DNA of 29,844 bases from a virus. Taxonomy: Duplodnaviria; Heunggongvirae; Uroviricota; Caudoviricetes. Below the pieces are notes generated by a model that saw nothing but the letters and a program-made list of their open reading frames with translations, was not told where the DNA came from and searched no databases. The stretch is from the IMG/VR virus record IMGVR_UViG_2541047968_000011; one strand, given 5' to 3'. Position 1 is the stretch's first letter. Each line of letters begins with the position of its first letter. Shown here piece by piece: positions 1 to 29,526 of this stretch. Both the position numbers and the translations under genes were made by a program.

Positions 1-210
1 GTGAATGCAGCGGTGGAGCATCTTCGCGCACTGGAGAAAAAAGGTGTCATCACGATAAAGCGTGGCGTGGCCCGGGGTATCACTCTTCATACCGCGGTGA
101 AGGACGACGACAGCGAGGCGGTCGGGATTATCCGCGCCCTGCTTGCCGGTGAGGCAAACGCCAGGCTGCGTGCAGCCCACTGGTTACATGAGAGGGGCCT
201 GAAAGTATGA
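1..210 (+). CDS. Hypothetical phage protein, 5'-truncated by the window edge (C-terminal 69 aa only)
   Basis: Open frame runs from the window start and ends overlapping the rusA start. No family recognised with confidence. Confidence 0.3.
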   Translation: MNAAVEHLRALEKKGVITIKRGVARGITLHTAVKDDDSEAVGIIRALLAGEANARLRAAHWLHERGLKV

Positions 211-602
211 AGCTAATACTGCCTTTTCCGCCCAGCGTGAACACGTACTGGCGACACCCCAATAAAGGGGCGTTTGCTGGTAAGAGCCTGATAAGCGCGG
301 CGGGGCGAAAATTCCAGAGCGCGGCGTGTGCAGCAATAGTTGAGCAGTTACGTCGTCTGCCGAAACCAACGTCGGCACCTGCTTCAGTGGAGATCGTGTT
401 GTTTCCTCCGGATAACCGGATCCGCGATCTGGACAACTATAACAAGGCGCTGTTTGACGCCCTGACCCACGCGGGTGTGTGGGAAGACGACAGCCAGGTG
501 AAAAGAATGCTGGTGGAGTGGGGACCGGTTATCCCGGAAGGGAAGGTCGAGATCACTATCAGTAAGTACGAAAAAGCGAGTTGCAAATTAGCAACTCGGT
601 AA
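207..602 (+). CDS. rusA: Crossover junction endodeoxyribonuclease RusA (Holliday junction resolvase)
   Basis: 131-aa translation has the RusA-like pattern (N-terminal ...PPSVNTYWRH..., central ...RIRDLDNYNKALFDALTHAGVWEDDSQV...) and typical length. Position in the lambdoid nin region upstream of Q fits. Confidence 0.88.
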   Translation: MKLILPFPPSVNTYWRHPNKGAFAGKSLISAAGRKFQSAACAAIVEQLRRLPKPTSAPASVEIVLFPPDNRIRDLDNYNKALFDALTHAGVWEDDSQVKRMLVEWGPVIPEGKVEITISKYEKASCKLATR

Positions 603-647
603 CGGAATTGAGCAACACCCTAAATTTGGGTATTACCTCGTTAAAGA

Positions 648-667
648 TACTGTATTTATGAACAGTG
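648..667. promoter_or_regulatory. Candidate LexA (SOS) box, TACTGTATTTATGAACAGTG
   Basis: CTGT-N8-ACAG with an AT-rich spacer; 16 of 20 positions match the consensus TACTGTATATATATACAGTA as recalled. It lies about 100 bp upstream of the KilA-N gene start in the rusA/KilA-N intergenic region. Confidence 0.5.
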
Positions 668-764
668 TATCCTTGATAACTATTAAAAATCGCAGTAAGT
701 TCATCCTGCATCAACGAAAAGGGAGTGCAGTCCCGCTCGTGGATAAAAATTTGTGGAGAAACCA

Positions 765-1580
765 ATGAATCAGTTGCTTGTAATTGATGGCGTTTCTGTG
801 CGCCAGTACTTCGAATCTAACTACTGTCTTAACGACCTTCAGAAAGCTGCTCTTCTTGCCGCTGGTGAGAATCGCTCCTCCCGTTCGCTGGAAGTTCACG
901 AGTTTATGCGTCGTCCTGAAACGAAGGCTCTTGTGGAATTATTGGAAGAAGAAACTACGGGAGATTCCCGTAGTATTCCTGTCATCACCATTCAGGGGCG
1001 CAATGGTGGGACGTATGTCTGTAAAGAGCTGGTCTATGCATATGCAATGTGGATCAGCCCGGCATTCAGCTTAAAAGTGATACGTACTTTTGATGCGCTT
1101 CATAATTCATCACCAGAAGAAACCACATCCGACAAAATTAAATCCGGGGTCATTCTGCTTGAATCAGCAGCAAAGACTCTAAATCTGTCAAACTCCTCGA
1201 AACTTGGTGCATACCAGAAATTATCAAAGGTAGCTGGTCTTCCTGAACTTATGCCGATCTATGCCATTGATGCACCTGCTGATGCGCCAGATGGTTCAAG
1301 CCGCCCTACGCTGTCGCTGAGTGCACTGCTGAAGCAGTATGGTATCCGCCTGACGGCTAATCAGGCATATCACCAGATGGCGAAGCTGGGGATCGTTGAA
1401 CAACGCGAACGATACAGCCGTACCGCGATTAACAACATCAAAAAATTCTGGTCGCTGACAGCGAAAGGCTGCATGTTCGGCAAGAACATCACCAGTCCTG
1501 CAAATCCGCGCGAGACGCAGCCGCATTTCTTCGAATCCCGATTCCCTGAGCTGTTAAAGCTGCTCGATACCGTTCATTGA
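765..1580 (+). CDS. KilA-N domain protein (Roi/antirepressor-like)
   Basis: N-terminal region (...IQGRNGGTYVCKELVYAYAMWISPAFSLKV...) resembles the KilA-N/Bro-N fold signature. ATG at 765 is preferred over the track start at 753 because GGAG sits 6 nt upstream. Confidence 0.7.
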   Translation: MNQLLVIDGVSVRQYFESNYCLNDLQKAALLAAGENRSSRSLEVHEFMRRPETKALVELLEEETTGDSRSIPVITIQGRNGGTYVCKELVYAYAMWISPAFSLKVIRTFDALHNSSPEETTSDKIKSGVILLESAAKTLNLSNSSKLGAYQKLSKVAGLPELMPIYAIDAPADAPDGSSRPTLSLSALLKQYGIRLTANQAYHQMAKLGIVEQRERYSRTAINNIKKFWSLTAKGCMFGKNITSPANPRETQPHFFESRFPELLKLLDTVH

Positions 1581-1581
1581 G

Positions 1582-2577
1582 GTGACCGTGAGAGCACTAC
1601 TGACCCCTGAAATCGCCCCGCGTATGGGGATCGTATTGTTCAGGCCAGGTTCAGAGCTGATGCCCCTGTTTATGCAGGGGCGTGTCCTGCTGGAGCCTGA
1701 GCCGGAACGTTATTCATCTTTTGCCAGTGGTGCCGTTCCGGCGGCATCACAACCGCTGGCGGATGATCCTGCCGTTCGGGCCGTGTTCCGCAATGAGGCA
1801 GTGATCCGTCGTGCTGGTGGAGTGGAATGTCTTGAAAGCTGGTTACTTCGTGAAAAAGGCTGCCAATGGCCTCATTCCGACTGGCACAGCGAGAATATGA
1901 CCACAATGCGACACGCGCCGGGCGCAATCCGTCTGTGCTGGCACTGCGATAACCAGCTGCGCGATCAGTTCACGGAACGGCTGGAATCAATGGCAACGGA
2001 TAACTGTGCCCGCTGGGTGTTATCTGTTGTGCGCCGTGATCTCGGTTTTGATGATAGTCACGTTGTAACAATGCCGGAACTGTGCTGGTGGCTGGTTCGT
2101 AATGACCTGGCTGATGCCTTACCGGAAAGTGCAGCCCGTAAGGCACTGAGATTACCTAAGCCTGTTGTGCCGTCTGTCACCCGGGAGAGTGACCTTGTTC
2201 CTTCGGTTCCTGCCACCAGCATTATCCAGGATAAAGCGAAAAAGGTGCTGGCGCTGAAAGTGGATCCAGAGTCGCCGGAGTCTTTTATGTTACGCCCAAA
2301 ATGTCGCCGCTGGGTTAATGAAAAGTACACGCGCTGGGTTAAGACACAGCCGTGTGCATGTTGTGGAAAGCCTGCTGATGATCCCCACCACCTGATAGGC
2401 CACGGTCAGGGTGGAATGGGTACAAAAGCGCATGACCTCTTTGTGTTGCCTTTGTGCAGAAAGCATCACGACGAGCTGCATGCGGATACCGTGGCATTTG
2501 AAGAGAAGTATGGCTCCCAGCTGGAGCTGATATTTCGTTTTATCGATCGTGCGCTGGCAATAGGCGTACTGGCGTAA
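1582..2577 (+). CDS. DUF968-like lambdoid prophage protein with a C-terminal Cys/His (HNH-like) motif
   Basis: 331-aa ORF starting at GTG and overlapping the preceding stop. C-terminus has ...CACCGKPADDPHHLIGHGQGG...CRKHHDELH..., typical of proteins found between rusA/roi and Q in lambdoid prophages. Confidence 0.55.
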   Translation: MTVRALLTPEIAPRMGIVLFRPGSELMPLFMQGRVLLEPEPERYSSFASGAVPAASQPLADDPAVRAVFRNEAVIRRAGGVECLESWLLREKGCQWPHSDWHSENMTTMRHAPGAIRLCWHCDNQLRDQFTERLESMATDNCARWVLSVVRRDLGFDDSHVVTMPELCWWLVRNDLADALPESAARKALRLPKPVVPSVTRESDLVPSVPATSIIQDKAKKVLALKVDPESPESFMLRPKCRRWVNEKYTRWVKTQPCACCGKPADDPHHLIGHGQGGMGTKAHDLFVLPLCRKHHDELHADTVAFEEKYGSQLELIFRFIDRALAIGVLA

Positions 2578-2590
2578 GTGGAGAACGAGC

Positions 2591-3343
2591 ATGAACCTTG
2601 AAGCTTTACCAAAATATTACTCCCCAAAATCTCCAAAATTGAGCGATGACGCACCGGCGACAGGCTTGGGTGGTTTAACAATTACAGATGTGATGGCTGC
2701 GCAGGGGATGGTGCAGTCGAAAGCACCGCTTGGGTTTGCCTTATTCCTGGCAAAAGTTGGTGTTCAGGATCCTCAGTTTGCGATTGAAGGTCTGCTCAAT
2801 TACGCGATGGCACTGGATAACCCGACATTGAACAAATTGAGTGAAGAAACCCGGCTACAGATCATTCCTTACCTTGTGAATTTTGCCTTTGCTGATTATT
2901 CCAGGTCTGCGGCAAGTAAGGCTCGCTGTGAGCGTTGTGCTGGTACTGGATTTCATAATGTATTGCGCGAAGTGGTGAAACACTCCAGAAGCGGGGAGTC
3001 TGTTATCAAGGAAGAGTGGGTGAAGGAACTATGTCAGCATTGTCATGGTAAGGGAGAAGTCAGCACAGCGTGCAGAGGGTGTAAGGGTAAAGGTATTGTC
3101 CTGGATGAAAAAAGAACCCGGCTTCATGGTACGCCTGTTTATAAGATTTGTGGGCGTTGCAATGGAAAACGGTTTAGTCGTTTACCAACCACACTGGCGC
3201 GGCATCATGTCCAGAAACTGGTACCAGACCTGACGGATTATCAGTGGTACAAAGGATATGCAGATGTCATTGATAAACTGGTTACAAAGTGCTGGCAGGA
3301 GGAATCTTACGCTGAAGCACAATTGAGAAAGGTGACAAGATAA
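2591..3343 (+). CDS. Q: Late-gene antitermination protein Q (phage 21/82-type, zinc-finger class)
   Basis: 250 aa with paired Cys clusters (CERCAGTG...CQHCHGKG...CRGCKGKG...CGRCNGK). Sits immediately upstream of the lysis region with GGAG 6 nt before the ATG. Confidence 0.8.
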   Translation: MNLEALPKYYSPKSPKLSDDAPATGLGGLTITDVMAAQGMVQSKAPLGFALFLAKVGVQDPQFAIEGLLNYAMALDNPTLNKLSEETRLQIIPYLVNFAFADYSRSAASKARCERCAGTGFHNVLREVVKHSRSGESVIKEEWVKELCQHCHGKGEVSTACRGCKGKGIVLDEKRTRLHGTPVYKICGRCNGKRFSRLPTTLARHHVQKLVPDLTDYQWYKGYADVIDKLVTKCWQEESYAEAQLRKVTR

Positions 3344-3374
3344 GTGATCTTCGCCGAAAATGGTGACATGATGC

Positions 3375-3403
3375 TTGCAATTTTCAAAAAACATGGATAA
3401 GAT
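3375..3403 (+). promoter_or_regulatory. Putative late promoter (pR'-equivalent): TTGCAA - 17 bp - TAAGAT
   Basis: Sigma70-like hexamers with a 17-bp spacer about 30 bp downstream of the Q stop, where lambdoid phages carry pR'/qut. Not verifiable without tools. Confidence 0.3.
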
Positions 3404-3451
3404 TTTCTCAACGATGGGCTTTATGTATCTGCCGTTGATAACCTTCAAGAA

Positions 3452-3473
3452 CTCGCCATTGAGCGGGTTTTTT
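3452..3473 (+). terminator. Weak intrinsic-terminator-like hairpin plus T6 (tR'-like candidate)
   Basis: A 5-bp stem (ctcgc/gcggg, one G-U pair) with a 6-nt loop followed by TTTTTT, downstream of the putative late promoter. Confidence 0.25.
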
Positions 3474-3545
3474 ATTGTGTAAAAACAGAATGACGGTATT
3501 AATTAGTAATATAATTATTCGACCATACAACTAGGGGTCGAAAAA

Positions 3546-4331
3546 ATGTATGTTTTTGAGTTAATCAAGCCAGGCAGTAATCTTAAGTTTGAAAACAGAG
3601 AGTTAGAATGGACGTTTAATAACTTATTATCCCATTTAGAAACTGCATTTTATGATGCTAATGTAGCATTAAATTTATTCGAACAGGAAAGAACTAAGAA
3701 TAACAGTAAATTCGATAATATTTCTCAGACATGGCAAGCTGATGTACAGAAACGACAAGCACTGGAAATGCTGGTTCGTAAAGAGTTTGGTTATCAACCT
3801 TATGAATATTCAGAACAGGTTTTTTCAGAGGTCGAGCTACGTCTAAAAAGAGAAAAATGGAATAACGGTGAATATCCGTTGGCTCATCAACACAGATTGA
3901 TCTTCTTACATGCAAAATCATTTCTCTACGCTTTGGATGCTATTGATAAATTTTTAAAGGTAATTTCAAAAGAAAATGGCGCGCCAGAGAACATTAAAAA
4001 ATTGCATGAACAGCTTTCTAAAGACTTTCCGGATTTAAGAAAGGTAAGGAATTCAGCTCAACACATGGAAGACAGAGTTCGTGGGCTTGGTGCAGAGAAA
4101 GAACCAAAGCCAATAAAACTCAAACCTGTAAATAATATTCATGTTGTTGCACCTCAGGGGGCATTGATGTTGAATAACTTATTCGGAACTAAATTTGGGT
4201 GCACTATGGCTGATGGCTATTATGGTGAAGTAGATATTTCGACAGAGTCTTTGGCAAAGTTGCAAAATTTAATCCAAAAAGTTTTTAATTCCTTCAGTTG
4301 GGAAGGACCAAAGCAACACCTTCCCCGATAA
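3546..4331 (+). CDS. Hypothetical cargo protein, 261 aa, with an R-x4-H (RNSAQH) HEPN-like motif
   Basis: Long ORF in visibly AT-rich DNA, preceded by a G-rich RBS and followed by a strong terminator. Predicted helical and charged; RNSAQH lies at residues 168-173. It occupies the Q-holin position that carries stx or other morons in lambdoid phages. Confidence 0.7.
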   Translation: MYVFELIKPGSNLKFENRELEWTFNNLLSHLETAFYDANVALNLFEQERTKNNSKFDNISQTWQADVQKRQALEMLVRKEFGYQPYEYSEQVFSEVELRLKREKWNNGEYPLAHQHRLIFLHAKSFLYALDAIDKFLKVISKENGAPENIKKLHEQLSKDFPDLRKVRNSAQHMEDRVRGLGAEKEPKPIKLKPVNNIHVVAPQGALMLNNLFGTKFGCTMADGYYGEVDISTESLAKLQNLIQKVFNSFSWEGPKQHLPR

Positions 4332-4350
4332 CATTTTCTTTTTTATTGAA

Positions 4351-4378
4351 AGCCGCCAAATAATTGGCGGCTTTTTTA
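4351..4378 (+). terminator. Rho-independent terminator
   Basis: Perfect 9-bp stem agccgccaa/ttggcggct with a 4-nt loop, followed by TTTTTT. Confidence 0.75.
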
Positions 4379-4420
4379 TTTCACAGTACCCGCAAATATC
4401 GCGAGGTGAGAGATGACGAA

Positions 4421-4747
4421 ATGCCTCATAACCCAAATACCTGGCTGGACTTGGTCCAGAGCTGGTGGCGTGGAGACACACCGCTGGGCGCAGTGATTAT
4501 GTCGATTGTTATGGCTGGTTTACGTATCGCCTATTTTGGCGGTGGTGGCGGCTGGAAGCGAAAAACACTCGAAATTCTACTCTGTGGCGCTCTGACGCTG
4601 ACTTTTGCATCCGCTCTTGAGTATGTCGGATGGCCTAAATCACTTTCTGTTGCCATTGGTGGTGGGGTGGGGCTGATCGGTGTCGATGCTATTCGTGGGG
4701 CTGCAATGCGAGTAATCGGTAACAAATTTGGTGGCTCTAAGGAGTAA
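4421..4747 (+). CDS. Holin, lambda S-like (class I, three predicted TM segments)
   Basis: Hydrophobic segments and a charged C-terminus with an overall pattern similar to lambda S; lies immediately upstream of the R endolysin. ATG at 4421 is chosen because the longer frame from 4364 would overlap the terminator hairpin. Confidence 0.7.
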   Translation: MPHNPNTWLDLVQSWWRGDTPLGAVIMSIVMAGLRIAYFGGGGGWKRKTLEILLCGALTLTFASALEYVGWPKSLSVAIGGGVGLIGVDAIRGAAMRVIGNKFGGSKE

Positions 4748-4750
4748 TTT

Positions 4751-5227
4751 ATGCAGGTACTAAATTCCCAGCGTAAAGCTTTCCTTGATATGGTGGCATG
4801 GTCAGAAGGAACGGATAACGGGCGACAACCGACACGTAACCACGGTTATGACGTTATTGTTGGTGGTGAACTGTTTACTGATTACTCCGATCATCCTCGC
4901 AAACTTGTCACGCTAAACTCCAAACTCAAATCAACAGCCGCCGGACGTTACCAGCTTCTTTCACGTTGGTGGGATGCTTACCGTAAACAGCTTGGTTTGA
5001 AAGACTTCTCCCCCAAAAGCCAGGACGCTGTGGCATTGCAGCAGATTAAAGAACGTGGCGCTTTACCGATGATTGATCGTGGTGATATTCGTCAGGCTAT
5101 CGACCGTTGCAGCAATATCTGGGCTTCGTTGCCGGGCGCTGGTTACGGTCAGTATGAACATAAAATTGGTGACCTGATTGCCAGGTTTAAAGAGGTTGGC
5201 GGGGTGGTAAATGAAGTTGAGCTATAA
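4751..5227 (+). CDS. R: Endolysin, lambda R-type lytic transglycosylase
   Basis: Near-identity over long stretches to lambda R as recalled (...NSQRKAFLDMVAWSEGTDNGRQPTRNHGYDVIVGGELFTDYSDHPRKLVTLN...). AAGGAG sits 6 nt upstream of the ATG. Confidence 0.93.
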   Translation: MQVLNSQRKAFLDMVAWSEGTDNGRQPTRNHGYDVIVGGELFTDYSDHPRKLVTLNSKLKSTAAGRYQLLSRWWDAYRKQLGLKDFSPKSQDAVALQQIKERGALPMIDRGDIRQAIDRCSNIWASLPGAGYGQYEHKIGDLIARFKEVGGVVNEVEL

Positions 5228-5672
5228 GCTAGTTATCGCTGCTTTCTTCGTTACTATTATTGGTTCTTTCATCTGGTCAGCGAATCATTACCACAATCAA
5301 GCCATTGAATACAAAAAGCAGCGCGACGAAAACGCTATGGCATTACATTCGGCTATGGCGACGATCTCTGATATGCAGAAGCGTCAACGTGACGTAGCTG
5401 AACTTGACGCCAGATACACAAAGGAGCTTGCTGATGCTAACACGACTCTCGAAAGTCTCCGTACTGATGTCTCTGCTGGTCGTAAGCGCTTGCAAATCGC
5501 CGCCACCTGTGCAAAGTCAACGACCGGAGCCAGCGGCATGGGCTATGGAGAAAGTCCAAGACTTACAGCTGATGCTGAACTCAATTATTACCGCCTCCGA
5601 AGTGGGATCGACAAGATAACTGCACAGGTTAACTACTTGCAGGAGTACATCAAGACACAGTGCCAGAAATGA
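5211..5672 (+). CDS. Rz: Spanin inner-membrane subunit Rz (i-spanin)
   Basis: N-terminal TM segment followed by coiled-coil, with lambda Rz-like stretches (...QRDVAELDARYTKELADA...). Start overlaps the end of R. Confidence 0.85.
   Translation: MKLSYKLVIAAFFVTIIGSFIWSANHYHNQAIEYKKQRDENAMALHSAMATISDMQKRQRDVAELDARYTKELADANTTLESLRTDVSAGRKRLQIAATCAKSTTGASGMGYGESPRLTADAELNYYRLRSGIDKITAQVNYLQEYIKTQCQK
5434..5619 (+). CDS. Rz1: Spanin outer-membrane lipoprotein subunit Rz1 (o-spanin), embedded in the +1 frame of Rz
   Basis: Embedded ORF with a lipoprotein signal and lipobox (MLTRLSKVSVLMSLLVVSAC) followed by a Pro-rich mature region, as in lambda Rz1. Confidence 0.75.
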   Translation: MLTRLSKVSVLMSLLVVSACKSPPPVQSQRPEPAAWAMEKVQDLQLMLNSIITASEVGSTR

Positions 5673-5744
5673 ATCTATAGATGACACTCCTCGTTCGTAT
5701 AAGATAATGCTAAATTACTATTAGCTTAATCACAGGAGACGGAC

Positions 5745-6608
5745 ATGGAAAGAGGTGTGGTATTTAGTGCATGCGAATTACTTAAAACCGAGGATGGAAA
5801 AGGCATCCGTACAGGTAAATGGATTAGTCAATTAGAAATAAACTATCTATGTCTTTATTGGGATAAACTAGTTTCACCCACTAATAATATTATACATACA
5901 GCATTAAATAACGAGGATGAATTAGAAAAATGTGGATTGCTAACCAGACCTGTATATAGACATCATGGTTGTTTTGATGGCCAATATATGGCTGATTTTT
6001 ATGCTGAAACTCATGCCAAAACAATAGATATACTTAGGCATGCGGATTCTTCTGTCGATTGGCGCATGCATTTTTTAAGTGACCAAATAAACTTGGTGCC
6101 TGAATTATCTAGAACCTCAGAAGTGATACGTTTTGAGCTAGCAAATTTATTACCCGTTCCCACAGAAGATGTGCACCTACATGATATTCTTGATTTCAAG
6201 GAAAGAAGAAAACCTGAATTAATCGCTTTACATGAATATCTTGATGAGCTTTACTTGGAAATAAAACGTTCTGGTGATATCAATCTTCAGAAAGCAAAAG
6301 CTCTTTCTAATCTTAAACAAGCAATAAAGGATATTGAACGCTTAAATTGTGAAGTGTGGAAAAGTCCAATAAAATTTAGCATCTCTACTTCCTTTGAGTT
6401 CGATTTTTCACAAATATTTACTCTGGCGGGAACTGTTTTATCTATGTCAGTAGATTATCCTTATAATGTTATTGGAGGGGTAAGTAGTTTTGCTTATTTT
6501 TTGGGAGGATGCATAAAAATAAAGCCACAATTTCAACAAGTGTTATCATTAGGTAATGATAAATTAGTTTACATAAGCAAAGGAAAATCGGAGGGTATTA
6601 TTTCCTGA
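5745..6608 (+). CDS. Hypothetical cargo protein, 287 aa, no recognised family
   Basis: Long ORF in AT-rich DNA with AGGAG 9 nt upstream of the ATG. It sits between the lysis cassette and the HNH/terminase genes. Confidence 0.65.
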   Translation: MERGVVFSACELLKTEDGKGIRTGKWISQLEINYLCLYWDKLVSPTNNIIHTALNNEDELEKCGLLTRPVYRHHGCFDGQYMADFYAETHAKTIDILRHADSSVDWRMHFLSDQINLVPELSRTSEVIRFELANLLPVPTEDVHLHDILDFKERRKPELIALHEYLDELYLEIKRSGDINLQKAKALSNLKQAIKDIERLNCEVWKSPIKFSISTSFEFDFSQIFTLAGTVLSMSVDYPYNVIGGVSSFAYFLGGCIKIKPQFQQVLSLGNDKLVYISKGKSEGIIS

Positions 6609-6684
6609 TTTTTGATTCTCATAATCAATGAATGTTTTTTGTGAATATACTTATTTTAACCATATAAATAATCAAGGTAATAAA

Positions 6685-7035
6685 GTGCCTCCTCGTATCC
6701 CGAAAGCCTGCCGTGCTCGAGGTTGCCGTAATACCACCACAGACCCGTCAGGCTACTGCGAAAGCCACAAAAGCGAAGGCTGGAAGCAATACAAGCCAGG
6801 CCAGTCCCGACACCAGCGCGGTTATGGTGCGAAATGGGATTTTATCCGTGAACGTGTGCTCAAGCGTGACAAAGGCCTGTGTCAGTTGTGTTTGCGTGCC
6901 GGTGTGGTGCGCGAGGCGAAAACCGTTGACCACATCATCCCTAAAGCACATGGCGGCACTGATGCCGACAGTAATCTGCAGAGTCTGTGCTGGCCGTGTC
7001 ATAAGGCGAAGACGGCCCGTGAACGGTTGAAGTAA
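6685..7035 (+). CDS. HNH endonuclease (terminase-associated)
   Basis: Cys/His-rich motifs (...CRARGC...C..H...DHIIPKAHGGTD...N...CWPCH) and position directly upstream of terS. GTG at 6685 is preferred over the AT-rich extension from 6628. Confidence 0.78.
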   Translation: MPPRIPKACRARGCRNTTTDPSGYCESHKSEGWKQYKPGQSRHQRGYGAKWDFIRERVLKRDKGLCQLCLRAGVVREAKTVDHIIPKAHGGTDADSNLQSLCWPCHKAKTARERLK

Positions 7036-7061
7036 GAACCAGTTCCCACTGCCAGAGGGGA

Positions 7062-7120
7062 GGGGCGGGTCAAATCCCTGTGACCTGACGTCTTCCGGAC
7101 TGCCCGCCCCATCGTTTTTT
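7062..7120 (+). other. GC-rich inverted repeat (ggggcggg ... cccgcccc) followed by T7; terminator or cos-associated structure
   Basis: 8-bp GC stem arms separated by about 33 nt, then TTTTTTT, in the HNH/terS intergenic region where HK97-like phages place cos. Confidence 0.3.
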
Positions 7121-7160
7121 TATACCCGCGAAAAATGAAATTTAACCAGGAGTGCCGCAT

Positions 7161-7655
7161 ATGGCTGGAACGGCGGGGCGTTCCGGGCGTCGCCCCAAGC
7201 CAACGGCGCGCAAGGCGCTGGCCGGAAACCCCGGCAAGCGAGCCCTGAATAAAGATGAACCTGTTTTTACGCCCATCAAAGGTGTTGAGCCACCGGAGTG
7301 GTTCGCTGAAGAAGATCTCCCTCTCGCCACGATCATGTGGCAATTGACAACTAAAGAACTTTGCGGTCAGGGCTTGCTGTGCGTGACTGACCTCGCGGTG
7401 CTTGAGCGGTGGTGTGTGGCCTATGAGTTCTGGCGACGTGCCGTGAAAAATATTGCCAGACAGGGCAACACCATCACCGGTGCAATGGGCGGTATGGTCA
7501 AAAATCCTGAGCTGACCGCCAAAAAAGAACAGGAGTCCGAGATGAGCAGCACGGGGGCAATGCTCGGACTCGACCCCAGCAGCCGCCAGCGTCTGATTGG
7601 CCTGGCGGGGCAGAAGAAAGCTATTAACCCGTTTCTGAAAATCATCGAATCATGA
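7161..7655 (+). CDS. Terminase small subunit (P27-family-like)
   Basis: N-terminus [27 protein letters not shown] is typical of P27-type TerS. AGGAG sits 8 nt upstream of the ATG at 7161, and the gene is followed by terL. Confidence 0.82.
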
Positions 7656-9385
7656 GCCGGAAATCTTACCCCAACGTAAATGCTGCCAATCAGTATGCCC
7701 GGGATGTCGTTCGCGGAAAGATTGTGGCCTGCCAGTTTGTGATTCAGGCCTGCCAGCGCCATCTTGATGACCTGATGGCGGAAAAAAGTAAGTCGTTTCG
7801 TTACCGCTTCGACAAGGACCTGGCTGAACGGGCCGCCAAATTTATTCAGCTGTTGCCGCACACCAAGGGGGAGTGGGCATTCAAGAGGATGCCCATCACG
7901 CTGGAGCCGTGGCAGCTCTTTGTGATCTGCTGCGCGTTTGGCTGGGTCAATAAAGGCTCCCGGCTGCGCCGCTTCCGTGAGGTGTACACCGAAATCCCCC
8001 GTAAGAACGGCAAATCAGCAATCTCTGCCGGTGTTGCCCTGTATTGTTTTGCCTGTGATAACGAGTTTGGCGCGGAAGTGTATTCCGGTGCCACGACAGA
8101 GAAACAGGCGTGGGAAGTCTTTCGCCCGGCGCGACTGATGTGTAAACGCACACCCATGCTGACGGAAGCGTTCGGGATTGAGGTTAACGCCTCAAACATG
8201 AACCGTCCGGAGGATGGTGCGCGGTTTGAACCGCTGATCGGTAACCCCGGTGATGGTTCATCACCCCACTGTGCCGTGGTGGATGAATATCACGAGCACG
8301 CCACAGATGCGCTTTACACCACGATGCTTACCGGGATGGGGGCGCGACGCCAGCCACTGATGTGGGCCATTACCACCGCCGGGTACAACATTGAGGGGCC
8401 GTGCTACGACAAACGGCGGGAAGTCATCGAGATGCTCAACGGCTCGGTGCCCAACGATGAACTGTTCGGGATCATCTATACCGTTGACGAAGGCGACGAC
8501 TGGACCGACCCGCAGGTACTTGAAAAAGCTAACCCGAATATCGGTGTGTCGGTTTATCGCGAGTTTTTGTTAAGCCAGCAGCAACGTGCGAAAAATAACG
8601 CCCGTCTGGCAAACGTCTTTAAAACAAAACACCTCAATATCTGGGTGTCGGCGCGTTCGGCGTATTTCAACCTGGTGAGCTGGCAGAGCTGCGAGGATAA
8701 ATCACTGACTCTTGAGCAGTTCGAGGGGCAGCCGTGCATTCTGGCCTTTGACCTGGCGCGTAAGCTGGATATGAACAGCATGGCGCGACTTTATACCCGC
8801 GAGATTGACGGTAAAACGCATTACTACAGTGTGGCCCCGCGTTTCTGGGTACCGTATGACACGGTGTATAGCGTCGAGAAAAATGAAGATCGCCGGACAG
8901 CCGAACGCTTTCAGAAATGGGTGGAAATGGGCGTTCTGACCGTTACCGATGGTGCAGAGGTGGATTATCGCTACATCCTCGAAGAGGCCAAAGCGGCGAA
9001 CAAAATCAGCCCGGTCAGTGAGTCACCCATCGACCCTTTCGGAGCGACCGGGCTGTCACATGACCTTGCTGATGAAGACCTGAACCCCGTCACCATCATT
9101 CAGAACTACACCAACATGTCCGACCCGATGAAAGAGCTGGAAGCGGCAATTGAATCGGGGCGCTTTCATCATGATGGCAATCCCATCATGACCTGGTGTA
9201 TCGGCAACGTGGTCGGAAAAACCATTCCGGGTAACGATGATGTGGTGAAGCCCGTCAAAGAGCAGGCGGAAAACAAAATTGATGGTGCAGTTGCGCTGAT
9301 TATGGCGGTTGGCAGAGCCATGCTGTACGAGAAAGAAGACACGCTGTCTGACCACATTGAGTCCTATGGGATCCGCTCGCTTTAA
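7652..9385 (+). CDS. Terminase large subunit
   Basis: 577 aa with an ATPase N-terminal region and nuclease C-terminal region, in the canonical TerS-TerL-portal order. Confidence 0.9.
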
Positions 9386-24010: not shown

Positions 24011-24643
24011 ATGCATCGTATAGACACGAAAACCGCGCAGAAGGATAAGTTCGGCGCGGGTAAGAACGGTTTTACCCGTGGTAACCCCCAGACTGGCACG
24101 CCTGCCACCGATCTGGATGATGACTACTTTGACATGTTGCAGGAAGAACTTTGTAGCGTTGTTGAGGCATCCGGTGCCAGTCTGGAGAAGGCGCGGCACG
24201 ACCAGCTGCTTACCGCGCTTCGTGCGCTGCTGTTAAGCCGCAAGAATCCGTTTGGCGATATCAAATCGGATGGCACGGTGAAAACGGCTCTCGAAAACCT
24301 TGGTTTGGGAGAAGCCAGATATGTCATTCAGCGAGGAGCTAATGTCAATGGTGCATGGATACGCTGGTCAGATGGTGCAATAGAAGTATTTGGAACTGGT
24401 GGTTCCAATGATAATGGGCTGGCTAAAGTCGTTTATCCAATTGCTCTACCTAAGCTTTCACGTTTTATCAGCATAGCGGAAAGAATAAGAACAGATTACG
24501 AGGCCACACCTAATAACGTTCACGTTTCAATGATCGTGGATGACCAGGTCAGTAATACAGGTTTTTATGTCCGCTGCCAGATGTACGACGGAAGACCATC
24601 AACAAGTGCTTTTTCCTGGAGAGTTTATTGTGCGCCTGTTTAA
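24011..24643 (+). CDS. Side tail fibre protein (constant N-terminus plus currently expressed variable C-terminus)
   Basis: N-terminus [26 protein letters not shown]... is the conserved tail-fibre N-terminal domain. A 26-bp invertase crossover site lies inside the gene at codons about 93-101. Confidence 0.8.
24288..24313. other. Invertase crossover site, left (gix/hix/pix-like), CTCTCGAAAACCTTGGTTTGGGAGAA
   Basis: Matches the hix/gix family pattern (..GAAAACC nn GGTTT..) as recalled. Its right half is repeated in inverted orientation at 26711-26737. Confidence 0.6.
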
Positions 24644-24827
24644 TCCTGTTACTTTGACTGAAGTAATCCCCGGTCTTCATGACGTGACCGGGGCTGTGGA
24701 ATTACCAGAAGATAACTGGTTTTTTACTATGACAGAAATTCCTCAGGGCATGGAGCTAACAATTAATGAGAAAGGGGAACCAATATTGATTGAGGTTAAT
24801 CAGTCTCAGGGAAAGCAGGCCAAATAA
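24630..24827 (+). CDS. Putative short tail-fibre assembly/chaperone protein (65 aa)
   Basis: GTG start with GGAG 7 nt upstream, directly after the fibre gene. It is short for a Tfa, and its 3' end overlaps the convergent tfa' fragment, so this call is uncertain. Confidence 0.35.
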
Positions 24828-25101
24828 TATCAGGCGCGGTGCTGGTATCTGTTGCCGTCACCGCGTCAATGTAATCCAGCACGGCGTTAAGCCGGGTTGT
24901 TTCTGCCTGCATCAGCTTCCGTCCGGCCTGTAATTTCAGCTGAATCAGACTGATGGAAGCCATTGCAGCATCAATCAGTGACTGACGCTGTGCTTCTGCC
25001 GTGTCTACTGCGGCGCTATGCTGTGCCTCAGTATCGGTCACCCATTTCTCACCATCCCATTTATCGTATGGTGTTAACGGGGCGATAGTTGTGGTATTTT
25101 C
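24796..25101 (-). pseudogene. Tail-fibre assembly gene tfa' (alternative orientation), C-terminal fragment separated from its 5' part by IS26
   Basis: Minus-strand translation ...ENTTTIAPLTPYDKWDGEKWVTDTEAQ...[16 protein letters not shown] matches the conserved Tfa C-terminus. The frame is open right up to the IS26 boundary. Confidence 0.75.
25094..25101. repeat. IS26 target-site duplication (left copy), GTATTTTC
   Basis: Identical 8 bp abut both ends of the IS. Confidence 0.85.
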
Positions 25102-25921
25102 GGCACTGTTGCAAAGTTAGCGATGAGGCAGCCTTTTGTCTTATTCAAAGGCCTTACATTTCAAAAACTCTGCTTACCAGGCGCATTTCGCCCAGGGGAT
25201 CACCATAATAAAATGCTGAGGCCTGGCCTTTGCGTAGTGCACGCATCACCTCAATACCTTTGATGGTGGCGTAAGCCGTCTTCATGGATTTAAATCCCAG
25301 CGTGGCGTTGATTATCCGTTTCAGTTTGCCATGATCGCATTCAATCACGTTGTTCCGGTACTTAATCTGTCGGTGTTCAACGTCAGACGGGCACCGGCCT
25401 TCGCGTTTGAGCAGAGCAAGCGCGCGACCATAGGCGGGCGCTTTATCCGTGTTGATGAATCGTGGGATCTGCCACTTCTTCACGTTGTTGAGGATTTTAC
25501 CCAGAAACCGGTATGCAGCTTTGCTGTTACGACGGGAGGAGAGATAAAAATCGACAGTGCGGCCCCGGCTGTCGACGGCCCGGTACAGATACGCCCAGCG
25601 GCCATTGACCTTCACGTAGGTTTCATCCATGTGCCACGGGCAAAGATCGGAAGGGTTACGCCAGTACCAGCGCAGCCGTTTTTCCATTTCAGGCGCATAA
25701 CGCTGAACCCAGCGGTAAATCGTGGAGTGATCGACATTCACTCCGCGTTCAGCCAGCATCTCCTGCAGCTCACGGTAACTGATGCCGTATTTGCAGTACC
25801 AGCGTACGGCCCACAGAATGATGTCACGCTGAAAATGCCGGCCTTTGAATGGGTTCATGTGCAGCTCCATCAGCAAAAGGGGATGATAAGTTTATCACCA
25901 CCGACTATTTGCAACAGTGCC
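25102..25921 (-). mobile_element. IS26 (IS6 family) insertion sequence, complete, 820 bp
   Basis: Perfect 14-bp terminal inverted repeats GGCACTGTTGCAAA at 25102-25115 and TTTGCAACAGTGCC at 25908-25921. Length is exactly 820 bp, it encodes Tnp26, and it is flanked by 8-bp direct repeats. Confidence 0.95.
25154..25858 (-). CDS. tnpA: IS26 transposase Tnp26
   Basis: 234-aa translation MNPFKGRHFQRDIILWAVRWYCKYGISYRELQEMLAERGVNVDHSTIYRWVQRYAPEMEK... is recognisable as the IS26/IS6-family transposase. Confidence 0.95.
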   Translation of the reverse strand: MNPFKGRHFQRDIILWAVRWYCKYGISYRELQEMLAERGVNVDHSTIYRWVQRYAPEMEKRLRWYWRNPSDLCPWHMDETYVKVNGRWAYLYRAVDSRGRTVDFYLSSRRNSKAAYRFLGKILNNVKKWQIPRFINTDKAPAYGRALALLKREGRCPSDVEHRQIKYRNNVIECDHGKLKRIINATLGFKSMKTAYATIKGIEVMRALRKGQASAFYYGDPLGEMRLVSRVFEM

Positions 25922-25929
25922 GTATTTTC
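25922..25929. repeat. IS26 target-site duplication (right copy), GTATTTTC
   Basis: Identical to 25094-25101. Confidence 0.85.
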
Positions 25930-26229
25930 AGGGTAATCACCCGGAGCTGTGATTTCTTTTGACTCTCCAGTTTTGGTGCTATAGACGATTTCACCGCGAT
26001 GGTCTGGCACATATTCCCATGAGTTAAAATTTGCAGAACGACAGATAGCATAACCCACCTTATATGTGCCAGGGGCATCTAAACAGGAATATGCAGGAAT
26101 ACCGACACCAATGGCAAGATATTCAGTTGAAGCTGAAATATATTCCTGCGTCTCACTATCATAGTTATAAACGGTAATATCCCCCGACTTTGTAGCAATA
26201 AGCTCACTATTTAATATTGCTTTATCCAT
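25922..26229 (-). pseudogene. Tail-fibre assembly gene tfa', N-terminal fragment interrupted by IS26
   Basis: Minus-strand ORF starting at 26229 (MDKAILNSELIATKSGDITVYNYD...HRGEIVYSTKTGESKEITAPGDYPENTALL) runs into IS26. Removing IS26 plus one duplication copy restores a continuous 201-codon Tfa-like frame. Confidence 0.75.
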
Positions 26230-26736
26230 TATGCTGCTCTCACGATATAGTTAAATGCAATGTTTCGAGGGCGATTCTCTGATGCTGTTGGTACAACCCT
26301 GGATGCATCAAAACTGAATCCTGTGTAAGGGGTATTTTTTGTTTCATATGTGCCTAGGTTATTATAGATATTTCGCGTAGCTTGAGATGCTAAGGCAAAA
26401 GCACCAGTACCAGTCTGTAACCTGAAAGTTGCTGTATCAATGGTGCCTTTAACTTCATTTATAAAGCCTGTTATATTCCGAATGGTATCTCCCTGTGACG
26501 AAAGCAAGCTACGGTTAGTATCAATCCCTCTTCCATCATCCCAGCCACGAATAAACTCACCGCGTAAATCAGGCAATTTATTTGTCGGGTAAACCTTTGC
26601 CAGTTCCGGGTATTCTTCAGCAGAAAAAGCCGCCCCGTTGCATTTCAGCCAGCCTGTTGGCGGAGTGGCGGAAGGCCACGGAACAGGCACGCCAACGGGT
26701 AATGCCGAACCTTCTCCCAAACCAACGTTTATGAAA
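26229..26736 (-). CDS. Alternative tail-fibre C-terminal segment (inverted orientation, no independent start)
   Basis: Minus-strand frame encodes ...VGLGEGSALPVGVPVPWPSATPPTGWLKCNGAAFSAEEYPELAKVYP... It begins at the right crossover site and would join the constant fibre N-terminus in frame at LGLGE/VGLGEG after inversion. Confidence 0.7.
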
Positions 26737-26737
26737 A
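26711..26737. other. Invertase crossover site, right (inverted copy); reverse complement TTTTCATAAACGTTGGTTTGGGAGAAG
   Basis: The right half GGTTTGGGAGAAG is identical to the left site in inverted orientation. It lies just upstream of the invertase gene, as in the Gin/Cin/Pin systems. Confidence 0.6.
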
Positions 26738-26791
26738 TGCAGAAATAACGATCAAATGGCATCATTCCTGCTTTTGTCAGGGAGATCTACC

Positions 26792-27346
26792 ATGCTTATT
26801 GGCTATGTACGTGTGTCAACAAATGACCAGAACACAGATCTACAGCGTAATGCGCTGAACTGTGCAGGATGCGAGCTGATTTTTGAAGACAAGATAAGCG
26901 GTACAAAGTCCGAAAGGCCGGGACTGAAAAAACTGCTCAGGACATTATCGGAAGGTGACACTCTGGTTGTCTGGAAGCTGGATCGGCTGGGGCGTAGTAT
27001 GCGGCATCTTGTCGTGCTGGTGGAGGAGTTGCGCGAACGAGGCATCAACTTTCGTAGTCTGACGGATTCAATTGATACCAGCACACCAATGGGACGCTTT
27101 TTCTTTCATGTGATGGGTGCCCTGGCTGAAATGGAGCGTGAACTGATTGTTGAACGAACAAAAGCTGGACTGGAAGCTGCTCGCGCACAGGGACGAATTG
27201 GTGGACGTCGCCCCAAACTTACACCAGAACAATGGGAGCAGGCCGGACGATTAATTGCAGCAGGAATTCCTCGCCAGAAGGTAGCGATCATCTATGATAT
27301 TGGTGTATCGACTTTGTATAAGAGGTTTCCAGCCAGGATTATATAA
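26792..27346 (+). CDS. pin: Serine-recombinase DNA invertase (Pin/Gin/Hin/Cin family)
   Basis: 184 aa with N-terminus MLIGYVRVSTNDQNTDLQRNAL... (catalytic Ser in the VRVST context) and a C-terminal HTH. GGAG RBS; adjacent to the invertible fibre segment. Confidence 0.92.
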   Translation: MLIGYVRVSTNDQNTDLQRNALNCAGCELIFEDKISGTKSERPGLKKLLRTLSEGDTLVVWKLDRLGRSMRHLVVLVEELRERGINFRSLTDSIDTSTPMGRFFFHVMGALAEMERELIVERTKAGLEAARAQGRIGGRRPKLTPEQWEQAGRLIAAGIPRQKVAIIYDIGVSTLYKRFPARII

Positions 27347-27542: not shown

Positions 27543-28442
27543 CTAATCATTATGGAGTATTTGATCGCCGTATGGCCAGCCATTTTCCCCAGGAAGGGTC
27601 ATACCTAACATTGGCATAATACTAAGTTGTCCAATGGTAAATCCTAGAGCACTTGTATTACTGATTCCGGCATAGGTCATATCAAGGGGGTTAGACTCTG
27701 AGCTGGACATAAAAAGATTTCTTGTGCCAATTCTATTCGCCATTGAGAACTGAATATGCCCACCAATTGTATTTACGGTGTCCTGAGATATCCAGTTGTT
27801 TAACGCGATAAATGGCGCCCGCCACCAGTTAAGCGTGCCATTCTCAAAACGCCCCCTCGTCATCTCAATATCTTCCCGAAACTGCTGCTTTCTGTCTCCC
27901 AAGACTACCGGGGTACCTGTTGTCAGGTCAAGGCAGTCCTCAATTACAAGATTAGTGGGGTTTGATGGGGTGTTGTAGATCTTAATGATTTTATGTACCT
28001 GTGTTCTGAAACAGAATCCGTAAATAATCATCTCCGTTGCTACAGAACGGGGAAAAAACTGGCCAATATCCAGTATAAATTTTTCCGCGATTCCCTTTGT
28101 TAAAACTGCAATTTCATAAAGACTCGGGTAACTATCATAAGTCAACTCCGGCTGCTGAACATCATAATAATTAACTTCATGTAATGAAGATAATGATACG
28201 GCAAGTAACTCCTTCACATTTATACCGATCATTGTTCCTCCTGCAAAGCCGAAACCAAACTCCATAATTTTTTCCGGAGATAGACGGTATATGTCATTGG
28301 AGCGAATAACTGATACCGGAATCGAGAATAGTTTAGGACAGTGATTTGTCATTACACTTTCATGCTGGGTGATTCTTGAGTCGCTTACGGCCCAGATACT
28401 TTCCCCTTCTTCCCTGTTTAGCCAGCAGGCTATTGCTGTCAT
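27543..28442 (-). CDS. Hypothetical cargo protein (299 aa from the RBS-supported ATG; the frame is open to 28580), no recognised family
   Basis: Long minus-strand ORF in AT-rich DNA. A strong SD (AAGGGGG) sits 7 nt upstream of the ATG at 28442. It lies immediately downstream of pin. Confidence 0.6.
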   Translation of the reverse strand: MTAIACWLNREEGESIWAVSDSRITQHESVMTNHCPKLFSIPVSVIRSNDIYRLSPEKIMEFGFGFAGGTMIGINVKELLAVSLSSLHEVNYYDVQQPELTYDSYPSLYEIAVLTKGIAEKFILDIGQFFPRSVATEMIIYGFCFRTQVHKIIKIYNTPSNPTNLVIEDCLDLTTGTPVVLGDRKQQFREDIEMTRGRFENGTLNWWRAPFIALNNWISQDTVNTIGGHIQFSMANRIGTRNLFMSSSESNPLDMTYAGISNTSALGFTIGQLSIMPMLGMTLPGENGWPYGDQILHND

Positions 28443-28923
28443 TGAAAACCCCCTTTTAAGTAAAAAAATCAGATTCAGATAGTGCATACATAATTTAGTC
28501 AAGTCATCTCTTTTAAGACGCATTGAGAAATGGTTGCTCAAGGTGCGCCAGTGAACGCGCACGAAAATAACTTCTTGCATTTCCCATTACACTCTGACTT
28601 TAGGGCCGCGTTAGATTTTAACATGGTGGCCGTGCATCCATTTAAATTGGTAATCTGGAGAATGAGTAACGCTGAATAGATTAACAATCTATGCGACTAA
28701 CGGCCCTTAAAAGCGCAGCTCATAACATCGAATTTTACCAGTTTAGTCATTTTTAAAAAGTGCCCGAAAAATGTTGTCCACGATTTGTGCTCTACGTCCC
28801 ATCTTGACCTACTCCCTGATAATTCACTCAGAAGGCGGTTAGCAATGTCCGTTAAGTGCTCACAACGGACATTCAGCCCACTAAATCCGACCGTGTCGCT
28901 CAATATGCGGACAGGTTGTAGTG

Positions 28924-29526
28924 CTAACTGCATTGTAGCTGTGAGATTTCACCATCGATGGCTTCTATAACCTGTTTATAGCGGAGCATGACCTCATCAT
29001 GAATCATCATTAATCCGCGGCCGTACTCTGTGGCTAGGATTGTGTATCTTTTCAGGTGTGCAAGATGTTCTTTGTTGCCAGTAATGTCACTTGCAACCTG
29101 CGTGGAGTCCAGCCGTTCGATAAGCGCATTATTGCCGCGATAGGAATCAATTAGGCTTCTTGCGCTTGTATAAAAAGCCACAATTTTTGAGAGTGTTTCT
29201 CTATGAACTTCAGGTAGGGATGCCGAGTTGGCTTCATAGAACGTGAAGTAGTTTTGAGTAATGGGGAAAATGTTATCGAACGGTGAGTTCCGGTCGTATT
29301 TTTCGATTTCTTCTGCCATTCTGGCCTGATACAGTTTAATCAGTGAGTCTATTTCCTCTCTGACACCCAATAGCGTTGTTATACGCTTCTCTCTGGCCGC
29401 TGTTGCCTGCTGTTTTGCCTGCTGTTTCACCTGAGTTGTCACTCCTATCATCGTGAAACAGCCACCTAAAAGAGCTGCTAAAAATGCGGAGATGAGATCT
29501 GAATATTCGTGCCAGAAGGTTAGCAT
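28924..29526 (-). CDS. Hypothetical membrane-anchored coiled-coil protein (200 aa)
   Basis: Minus-strand ORF with an N-terminal hydrophobic segment (LISAFLAALLGGCFTMIGV) followed by a charged helical region. AT-rich; no convincing SD, so the start is uncertain. Confidence 0.45.
   Translation of the reverse strand: MLTFWHEYSDLISAFLAALLGGCFTMIGVTTQVKQQAKQQATAAREKRITTLLGVREEIDSLIKLYQARMAEEIEKYDRNSPFDNIFPITQNYFTFYEANSASLPEVHRETLSKIVAFYTSARSLIDSYRGNNALIERLDSTQVASDITGNKEHLAHLKRYTILATEYGRGLMMIHDEVMLRYKQVIEAIDGEISQLQCS

Follow-up and report, generated by a model that had tools for sequence, protein, structure and literature searches.

The DNA analysed here, virus record IMGVR_UViG_2541047968_000011 of IMG/VR (Caudoviricetes; 29,844 nucleotides (nt), hereafter the window), belongs to an Escherichia coli prophage and carries an AT-rich cargo gene of foreign origin between the gene for the late-gene antiterminator Q and the gene for the holin S. 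The cargo gene extends from position 3546 to 4331 on the plus strand, starts with an ATG preceded by AGGGG, and encodes a cytoplasmic protein of 261 amino acids, a candidate HEPN-like nuclease, for which the sole PHROGs assignment is phrog_5322 (E 5e-140), a family annotated as of unknown function. The GC content amounts to 0.32-0.38 over the gene versus 0.47-0.58 in its flanks and 0.514 for the whole window. The RefSeq counterpart of the product is WP_000289222.1, annotated for this gene in strain GTEN_24 as ‘hypothetical protein’, and the identical protein is recorded on 915 contigs, again as ‘hypothetical protein’ in every case. Judging from these exact copies and from numerous homologues, the open reading frame (ORF) is a genuine gene. 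The left border of the slot is formed by Q (2591 to 3343, plus strand; PF03589 Antiterm, E 1e-53; phrog_127), whose RefSeq homologue is named ‘ydfT: antitermination protein’, and the right border by a lambda-family holin (4421 to 4747, plus strand; PF05106, E 3e-25), the start of which was set by its RefSeq homologue, the open frame itself reaching back to a TTG at 4364. Genes for a lysozyme (4751-5227) and Rz (5211-5672) follow the holin. In Stx phages, the Q-holin slot carries stx. An earlier reading of the window (the sequence-only reading) had described an AT-rich ORF for 261 amino acids at 3546-4331, with an RNSAQH motif at residues 168-173 and located between Q and the holin, and its coordinates, composition, motif and position were all confirmed.

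A first protein search returned 375 homologues of the cargo protein, and an exhaustive profile search led to 986 clusters at 50% identity (E<=1e-3), 446 of them with E<=1e-30; nearly all of these clusters consist of proteins of about 260 amino acids that match from end to end. The family spans Gamma- and Betaproteobacteria, reaches out to phages of Thermotogae and plasmids of Deinococcus, and has environmental hosts such as Limnobacter, Chromobacterium, Psychrobacter, Marinitoga and Deinococcus among its carriers. The RNSAQH motif (R168-N169-S-A-Q-H173; codons 4047 to 4064, plus strand) appears throughout the family as a conserved R-[N/D]-x3-H. In an alignment of 260 sequences, no other columns of the protein are as conserved as R168 (AGG, 4047-4049) and H173 (CAC, 4062-4064), each present in 258 sequences (99.2%). 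Position 169 is occupied by N in 225 sequences, by D in 34 and by S in one, which amounts to N or D in 259 of the 260, and E175, D176 and R177 are each more than 90% conserved. Among the 36 motif variants listed, the pair of R and H was kept in all. Proteins from Marinitoga (Thermotogae) phages, which are 24-28% identical, have the motif in the form VRNSIAH, and R168, N169 and H173 are still invariant when they are included; a search started from the Marinitoga protein found three proteins only, none of them with Pfam domains.

The published HEPN signature is Rx4-6H, with ‘mostly N, D or H’ as the residue after R, and in HEPN domains helix 2 often contributes another acidic residue, as part of an E-x3-[KR] motif (Anantharaman et al., 2013; PMC3710099). 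Two of these properties, the conserved Rx4-6H and the polar N or D following R, are found in the present family. A candidate for the second motif is D131-K135 (codons 3936 to 3950, plus strand), a D-x3-K in the helix of residues 112-142 with D instead of E, where 95% of the 260 sequences have D131 and 93% have K or R at 135, and neither residue is lost in the Marinitoga branch. Among the 48 ORFs of at least 100 amino acids in the window, Rx4-6H is present in 27 and R[NDH]x3H in 2. Because Rx4-6H is so frequent, the RNSAQH motif taken from a single sequence is not above chance, and comparison of sequences gives it significance only through its family-wide invariance. It is in this form, as a core that the whole family keeps, with N and D alternating after R as in HEPN proteins (PMC3710099), that the R-N-x3-H signature singled out by the sequence-only reading was upheld.

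An AlphaFold2 model of the E. coli protein was built on a 35-sequence alignment and reached a predicted local distance difference test (pLDDT) score of 88 and a predicted template modelling (pTM) score of 0.80. Helices were predicted for residues 18-81, 90-106, 112-142 and 149-168, followed by the motif, a beta-rich region and a helix comprising residues 233-248. The model of a Marinitoga protein (pLDDT 82, pTM 0.79), which is without a counterpart of E. coli residues ~46-98, is cleaner and consists of three long helices with the motif ending the third, the beta insert and a closing C-terminal helix. According to these models, the core fold would be a bundle of four helices whose helix 3 has the motif at its end. 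Among the matches of fold searches, PDB entry 3jrt and HepT toxins recur. The predicted fold is consistent with HEPN and indicates the most similar known HEPN family; it does not separate HEPN from other up-down bundles.

The cargo gene is found in few strains of its host species: of 5426 complete genomes of E. coli, 23 carry it, all on the chromosome and with at least 99.7% identity. Homologues occupy the Q-holin slot in other enterobacteria as well, namely in four different Klebsiella prophages (61% identity; Q from two further families and a holin of class II), in Citrobacter freundii (49% identity) and in Enterobacter kobei (51% identity), so that members in this slot are distributed over four enterobacterial genera, three Q families and three holin types. 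The recurrence at Q-S positions of other lambdoid prophages, which had been suggested as a check on the sequence-only reading, is thus real. Nucleotide similarity between the E. coli and Klebsiella loci begins 10 nt before the ATG and stops before the stop codon, and therefore the ORF is all that they have in common. In prophages of E. coli MINF_9A and GN25 whose Q and holin flanks are ~91-92% identical, the slot contains other small hypothetical genes (833-1075, 80 amino acids, and 737-940, 67 amino acids, respectively, in coordinates of the respective loci). On such comparisons, the Q-holin slot is a variable cargo site, and the cargo gene is dispensable, since few E. coli genomes carry it and related slots hold other small genes.

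Outside the Q-holin slot, the family gene occurs in a variety of settings. In Vibrio parahaemolyticus (contig DAPFLM010000004.1), it forms a single-gene cassette between ~125-nt attC-like repeats, with ~18 nt separating the end of one repeat from the start codon and 4 nt separating the gene from the following repeat. The surrounding 8-kb locus (1-8000) has 11 attC-like repeats at a spacing of 480-930 bp and represents a chromosomal integron cassette array, the cassettes of which include a HEPN_AbiV gene, a glyoxalase and acetyltransferases in addition to the family member. On the Psychrobacter plasmid pA53P1 (4168 bp), the family gene is the sole cargo beside rep, relaxase and mobC genes. The RefSeq start of this gene, at 1356, results in 283 amino acids and lies 8 nt after rep, homology starts from 1413, and with either start it is the sole non-backbone gene. 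On small plasmids of Acinetobacter, Proteus and Klebsiella, the family gene adjoins Abi_2 and RelE-type modules, in Pseudomonas it adjoins HEPN_AbiU2 and an AAA_21/RloB pair, and in Aeromonas it is located in an integrase/VapE island upstream of SIR2-like genes. A translated stretch of 21 amino acids is 81% alike between the region upstream of the Aeromonas gene (5923-6060) and the Vibrio attC-like repeat (4481-4591), which hints at an integron-cassette origin of the Aeromonas copy. A lone chromosomal gene was found in Chromobacterium, and in phages of Andreprevotia and Marinitoga the family gene lies within tail operons. By this distribution, the family gene is an autonomous, horizontally mobile one-gene module.

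No conserved partner was detected among the ORFs of at least 30 amino acids within 2 kb of the gene when 12 contexts were compared all against all, the sole cross-context matches being proteins of phage modules and frames that run antisense within the gene itself, and the claim that no antitoxin ORF lies adjacent to the gene was borne out to this extent. Likewise, none of the 12 contexts contained a nucleotidyltransferase (MNT) neighbour, no tandem repeats were found near the gene, and an Rfam E-value scan of its vicinity gave only sub-threshold matches over the two terminator hairpins. AbiF and AbiV, HEPN proteins of the ‘single-gene’ kind, are now recognised as type III toxin-antitoxin systems in which an RNA antitoxin lies upstream (PMC13064643). 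Going by the gene borders, there is no room for such an upstream RNA in the Vibrio cassette or on the 4.2-kb plasmid.

Several transcription signals can be recognised around the cargo gene. A possible pR'-like late promoter is located at positions 3332 to 3361 (plus strand; GTGACA-18-GAAAAT, 9/12 consensus matches), where promoter-like sites are not commoner than in shuffled sequence and the pR' assignment comes from position only. Upstream of the cargo gene, at 3447 to 3472 (plus strand), there is a tR'-like intrinsic terminator with a 10-pair stem and a T run; the Klebsiella and Citrobacter prophages have an equivalent terminator after Q, and a GC-rich hairpin with a T run can be read by eye, without a scan, upstream of the Enterobacter copy. 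A strong intrinsic terminator (4348 to 4375, plus strand; 12-pair stem with 6 GC pairs, then a T run) stands right after the cargo gene, and terminators directly follow the gene in Klebsiella (6807-6832) and Citrobacter (6802-6834) as well. A perfect -10 hexamer, TATAAT (3510 to 3515, plus strand), is situated 36 nt ahead of the ATG and might belong to an own promoter of the gene; the best -35 for it agrees at only 2 of 6 positions. Similar -10-like hexamers precede the Klebsiella and Citrobacter copies, and no usable one is present between the upstream hairpin and the ATG of the Enterobacter copy, where the sole match lies 4 nt before the ATG. In DNA as AT-rich as this, TATAAT is easily a chance occurrence. 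Since the -35 is poor and the Enterobacter copy has no usable counterpart, the cargo gene may rely on leak-through at the terminator in the lysogen and on Q antitermination upon induction. With its foreign composition, its terminator and the variability among relatives, the gene in the slot from Q and tR' to the holin has the attributes of a lambdoid Q-S ‘moron’, an own promoter not being established.

The cargo gene can be compared to several known systems. The integron-cassette HEPN family of PDB 3jrt (Vpc_cass2, Vibrio paracholerae; PMC3710099) has a conserved Rx4-6H and a helix 4 that is distorted by non-helical residues, and it is a stand-alone mobile cargo just like the present family, one member of which is itself a Vibrio integron cassette. 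However, by the published description of 3jrt (166 amino acids), the cargo protein differs from it in its length of 261 amino acids and in a large beta-rich insert after the motif, and proteobacterial members of the family differ further in an extra helical hairpin at residues ~46-98. Like AbiD, AbiD1 and AbiF (Abi_2), AbiU2, AbiV and AbiJ, the cargo gene is a one-ORF module on mobile elements; its motif, R-N-x-x-A/Q-H-H, resembles the IRNVCAHH of the neighbouring Abi_2 protein in Acinetobacter, and it is also by place that the family is like Abi proteins, as its genes adjoin Abi_2 and AbiU2 genes and share the Vibrio array with AbiV. Unlike for the type III systems AbiF and AbiV, no RNA that would fit as an antitoxin is found at the cargo gene, and unlike the HepT-MntA toxins of types II and VII (PDB 5yep, 7ae2 and 8xdj), family members are not accompanied by MNT in the 12 contexts; the cargo protein also has twice the size of HepT. 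With other cargo of the Q-S slot, such as stx, the gene has in common that it is AT-rich, bracketed by terminators, downstream of the late promoter and terminator and upstream of the holin. In contrast to stx, the product is cytoplasmic and unrelated to Shiga toxin, and the family occurs mostly outside phages.

A prediction of a defence function for this protein is already public, which the HEPN reading and the anatomy of the gene described here are not. DefensePredictor (Science 2026; PMC13092281) lists in Table S10 the ‘hypothetical protein’ WP_023277813.1 (261 amino acids) in cluster WP_000289222.1, which was classified as a ‘Predicted novel defense gene’ with a mean log-odds of 10.06 as compared to a strict cutoff of 4 (PMC13092281). 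Among the supplementary data searched, the cluster was met in the prediction table only and not among the tested systems (PMC13092281). A literature search for phrog_5322 and WP_000289222 found no paper text mentioning the protein.

We propose, at about even confidence, that the cargo gene encodes a latent HEPN-like ribonuclease (RNase) and, as cargo of the prophage, would provide abortive infection or defence from one gene; with its homologues, it probably represents a new HEPN-like single-gene defence family of predicted function. Motif conservation, the predicted bundle topology, autonomy of the gene and defence-type neighbourhoods are the observations behind this proposal, and the DefensePredictor listing also speaks for it; we infer from them an RNase that cleaves RNA once a phage has triggered it and dimerisation has activated it, and that the beta insert otherwise inhibits. 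In an uninfected cell, the protein would be latent, either as a monomer or through autoinhibition, for which the beta insert is a possible agent. A cue from a phage would lead to its activation, probably via a dimerisation that joins two R/H motifs as in other HEPN RNases, and metal-independent cleavage of RNA would then halt translation and abort the infection. With the tR'-like terminator ahead of the gene and the holin behind it, low expression is expected in the lysogen, where transcription would come only from leak-through or a weak own promoter, and strong Q-dependent transcription would set in after induction. A more far-reaching version, which appears possible to us and yet doubtful, is that the family constitutes a new HEPN-like branch independent of any antitoxin, be it protein or RNA, in which sensor and effector would be united in one polypeptide and the beta insert would restrain the RNase until a phage cue arrives; phages would have recruited such a gene repeatedly to the first position of the late operon, with Q also switching it on upon induction.

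A number of results weigh against a HEPN-like RNase. The HMM search against HEPN families that had been suggested as a check failed to support it, as no HMM or profile method placed the protein in any curated HEPN family. Pfam scans at E<=10 across 35 + 6 (41) family members gave no meaningful match, and PF07751 (Abi_2), PF01934 and PF05168, the latter two concerning HepT, were not matched in them. NCBIfam gave no meaningful match for the cargo protein either, none of the families among the 5027 models of PADLOC-DB v2 was matched at E<=1, and profile searches of the PDB with hmmsearch gave chance-level matches only. No Pfam match to any Abi HEPN family was obtained, and membership in Abi_2 was rejected, as hhalign gave a probability of 0.5% when the 260-sequence family was compared with a 119-sequence Abi_2 alignment that had been grown from the neighbouring gene of a family member. 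Foldseek had no match in the PDB at E<=0.001, most fold-search matches were non-HEPN bundles (hemerythrin, Rsd, p130Cas and designed bundles), the motif segment is of low confidence in both models (pLDDT 58-74 in the E. coli and 45-61 in the Marinitoga protein), and in the DefensePredictor data the HHblits and Foldseek columns for cluster WP_000289222.1 are empty (PMC13092281). Furthermore, N39, N43, K101, R177, R179 and E228 are near-invariant polar residues outside the HEPN signature, and a free-standing RNase toxin without an antitoxin needs a control mechanism, none of which is evident. Since the sequence-level membership tests were all negative, the protein is assigned to no curated HEPN family and is best described as HEPN-like by motif, topology and best structural neighbour. 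Of the single-gene abortive-infection-type effector with a HEPN motif envisaged in the sequence-only reading, the stand-alone nature, motif, fold and contexts were retained and profile membership was not, and of the structure check the bundle stood, with the motif segment at low model confidence.

The missing sequence and profile links, the dominance of other bundles in fold searches, the near-invariant polar residues outside the signature and the unusual beta-rich insert would be accommodated by a four-helix bundle unrelated to HEPN, in which the cluster of R, N, H, E, D and R residues serves other chemistry or binding, such as that of another kind of nuclease, of an enzyme that modifies nucleotides or of a regulator; the protein could still have a role in defence or competition. 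We regard such a protein as unlikely, because an invariant R that only N or D follows, and an H at a distance of exactly five residues from this R, make up the specific HEPN pattern, the location of the motif matches that of HEPN motifs, and 3jrt and the HepT toxins recur among fold matches; the hemerythrin reading in particular was rejected, as there is a single conserved His. The gene might also serve the phage instead of the lysogen: as the first late gene, transcribed mainly under Q antitermination, it would act in the prophage's own lytic cycle, degrading RNA of the host or of competitors or excluding co-infecting phages, and give the lysogen no protection. Its recurrence in four enterobacterial lineages, with a tR'-like terminator on one side and the holin on the other and with Q of three families and holins of three types, the Enterobacter copy without a usable -10-like hexamer from hairpin to ATG, and the Andreprevotia and Marinitoga members inside structural late operons speak for this, but the family gene also occurs with no phage nearby, as a small plasmid's sole cargo, as an integron cassette and as a lone gene on a chromosome, and its rarity in complete E. 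coli genomes (23/5426) and replacement by other small genes in related slots mark it as dispensable cargo, which makes a purely phage-serving gene quite improbable.

It is very unlikely, in our estimate, that the protein acts as the toxin in a toxin-antitoxin or addiction module that has escaped recognition and whose antitoxin would be a small RNA, as for the type III systems AbiF and AbiV, or an overlooked small protein. The recent demonstration of upstream RNA antitoxins for AbiF and AbiV (PMC13064643) and the presence of the gene in integrons and on small plasmids, both of which commonly carry addiction modules, would agree with such a module. However, neither tandem repeats nor an Rfam match are present near the gene, the E. 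coli and Klebsiella loci share the coding sequence only, the Vibrio attC-like repeats leave ~18 nt before the start and 4 nt after the gene, the gene of pA53P1 abuts rep and the relaxase gene, and the 12 contexts hold no conserved neighbour ORF of at least 30 amino acids. A host-fitness or virulence moron like stx, acting outside the bacterial cytoplasm, is brought to mind by AT-rich foreign DNA in the very slot that stx has in Stx phages, and we consider it extremely improbable, given that neither a signal peptide nor a hydrophobic segment is visible in the protein sequence, that the family is spread through environmental bacteria and that the genes next to it belong to defence and toxin-antitoxin systems and not to virulence.

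If the proposal of a latent HEPN-like RNase is true, ~1000 clusters at 50% identity would make up an unannotated HEPN-type defence family and a compact case of an RNase toxin kept silent without an antitoxin, and the lambdoid prophage Q-holin slot would gain added evidence as a hotspot for defence cargo. For a gene that a 2026 machine-learning screen had flagged as defensive without known relatives, a testable catalytic hypothesis (R168, N169, H173 and D131) is now available, which makes it a well-defined candidate with clear mutants, if not a new principle.

Other features of interest lie elsewhere in the window. A second AT-rich cargo gene (GC 0.30-0.37; 287 amino acids) lies at 5745-6608 on the plus strand, between Rz and the HNH/terminase genes; its product matches Pfam DUF6236 (E 1e-31) and phrog_23128 and has no PADLOC match. 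In the near-identical prophage of E. coli GTEN_24, iss (bor-like) is found in its place on the opposite strand. Positions 24011-27346 likely form an invertible tail-fibre segment. One of its ORFs (24011-24643) encodes a tail-fibre N-terminal part, another, on the minus strand (26229-26765), has a phage tail collar domain, and a resolvase-invertase of the Gin/Pin type (PF00239 and HTH_7) is encoded at 26756-27346. Beyond the invertase, where the GC content drops to ~0.39, two minus-strand ORFs of 344 (27543-28580) and 199 amino acids (28924-29526), which have no Pfam or PHROG match and only a chance-level ZorB match in PADLOC (E 0.002), may be additional cargo at the prophage end.
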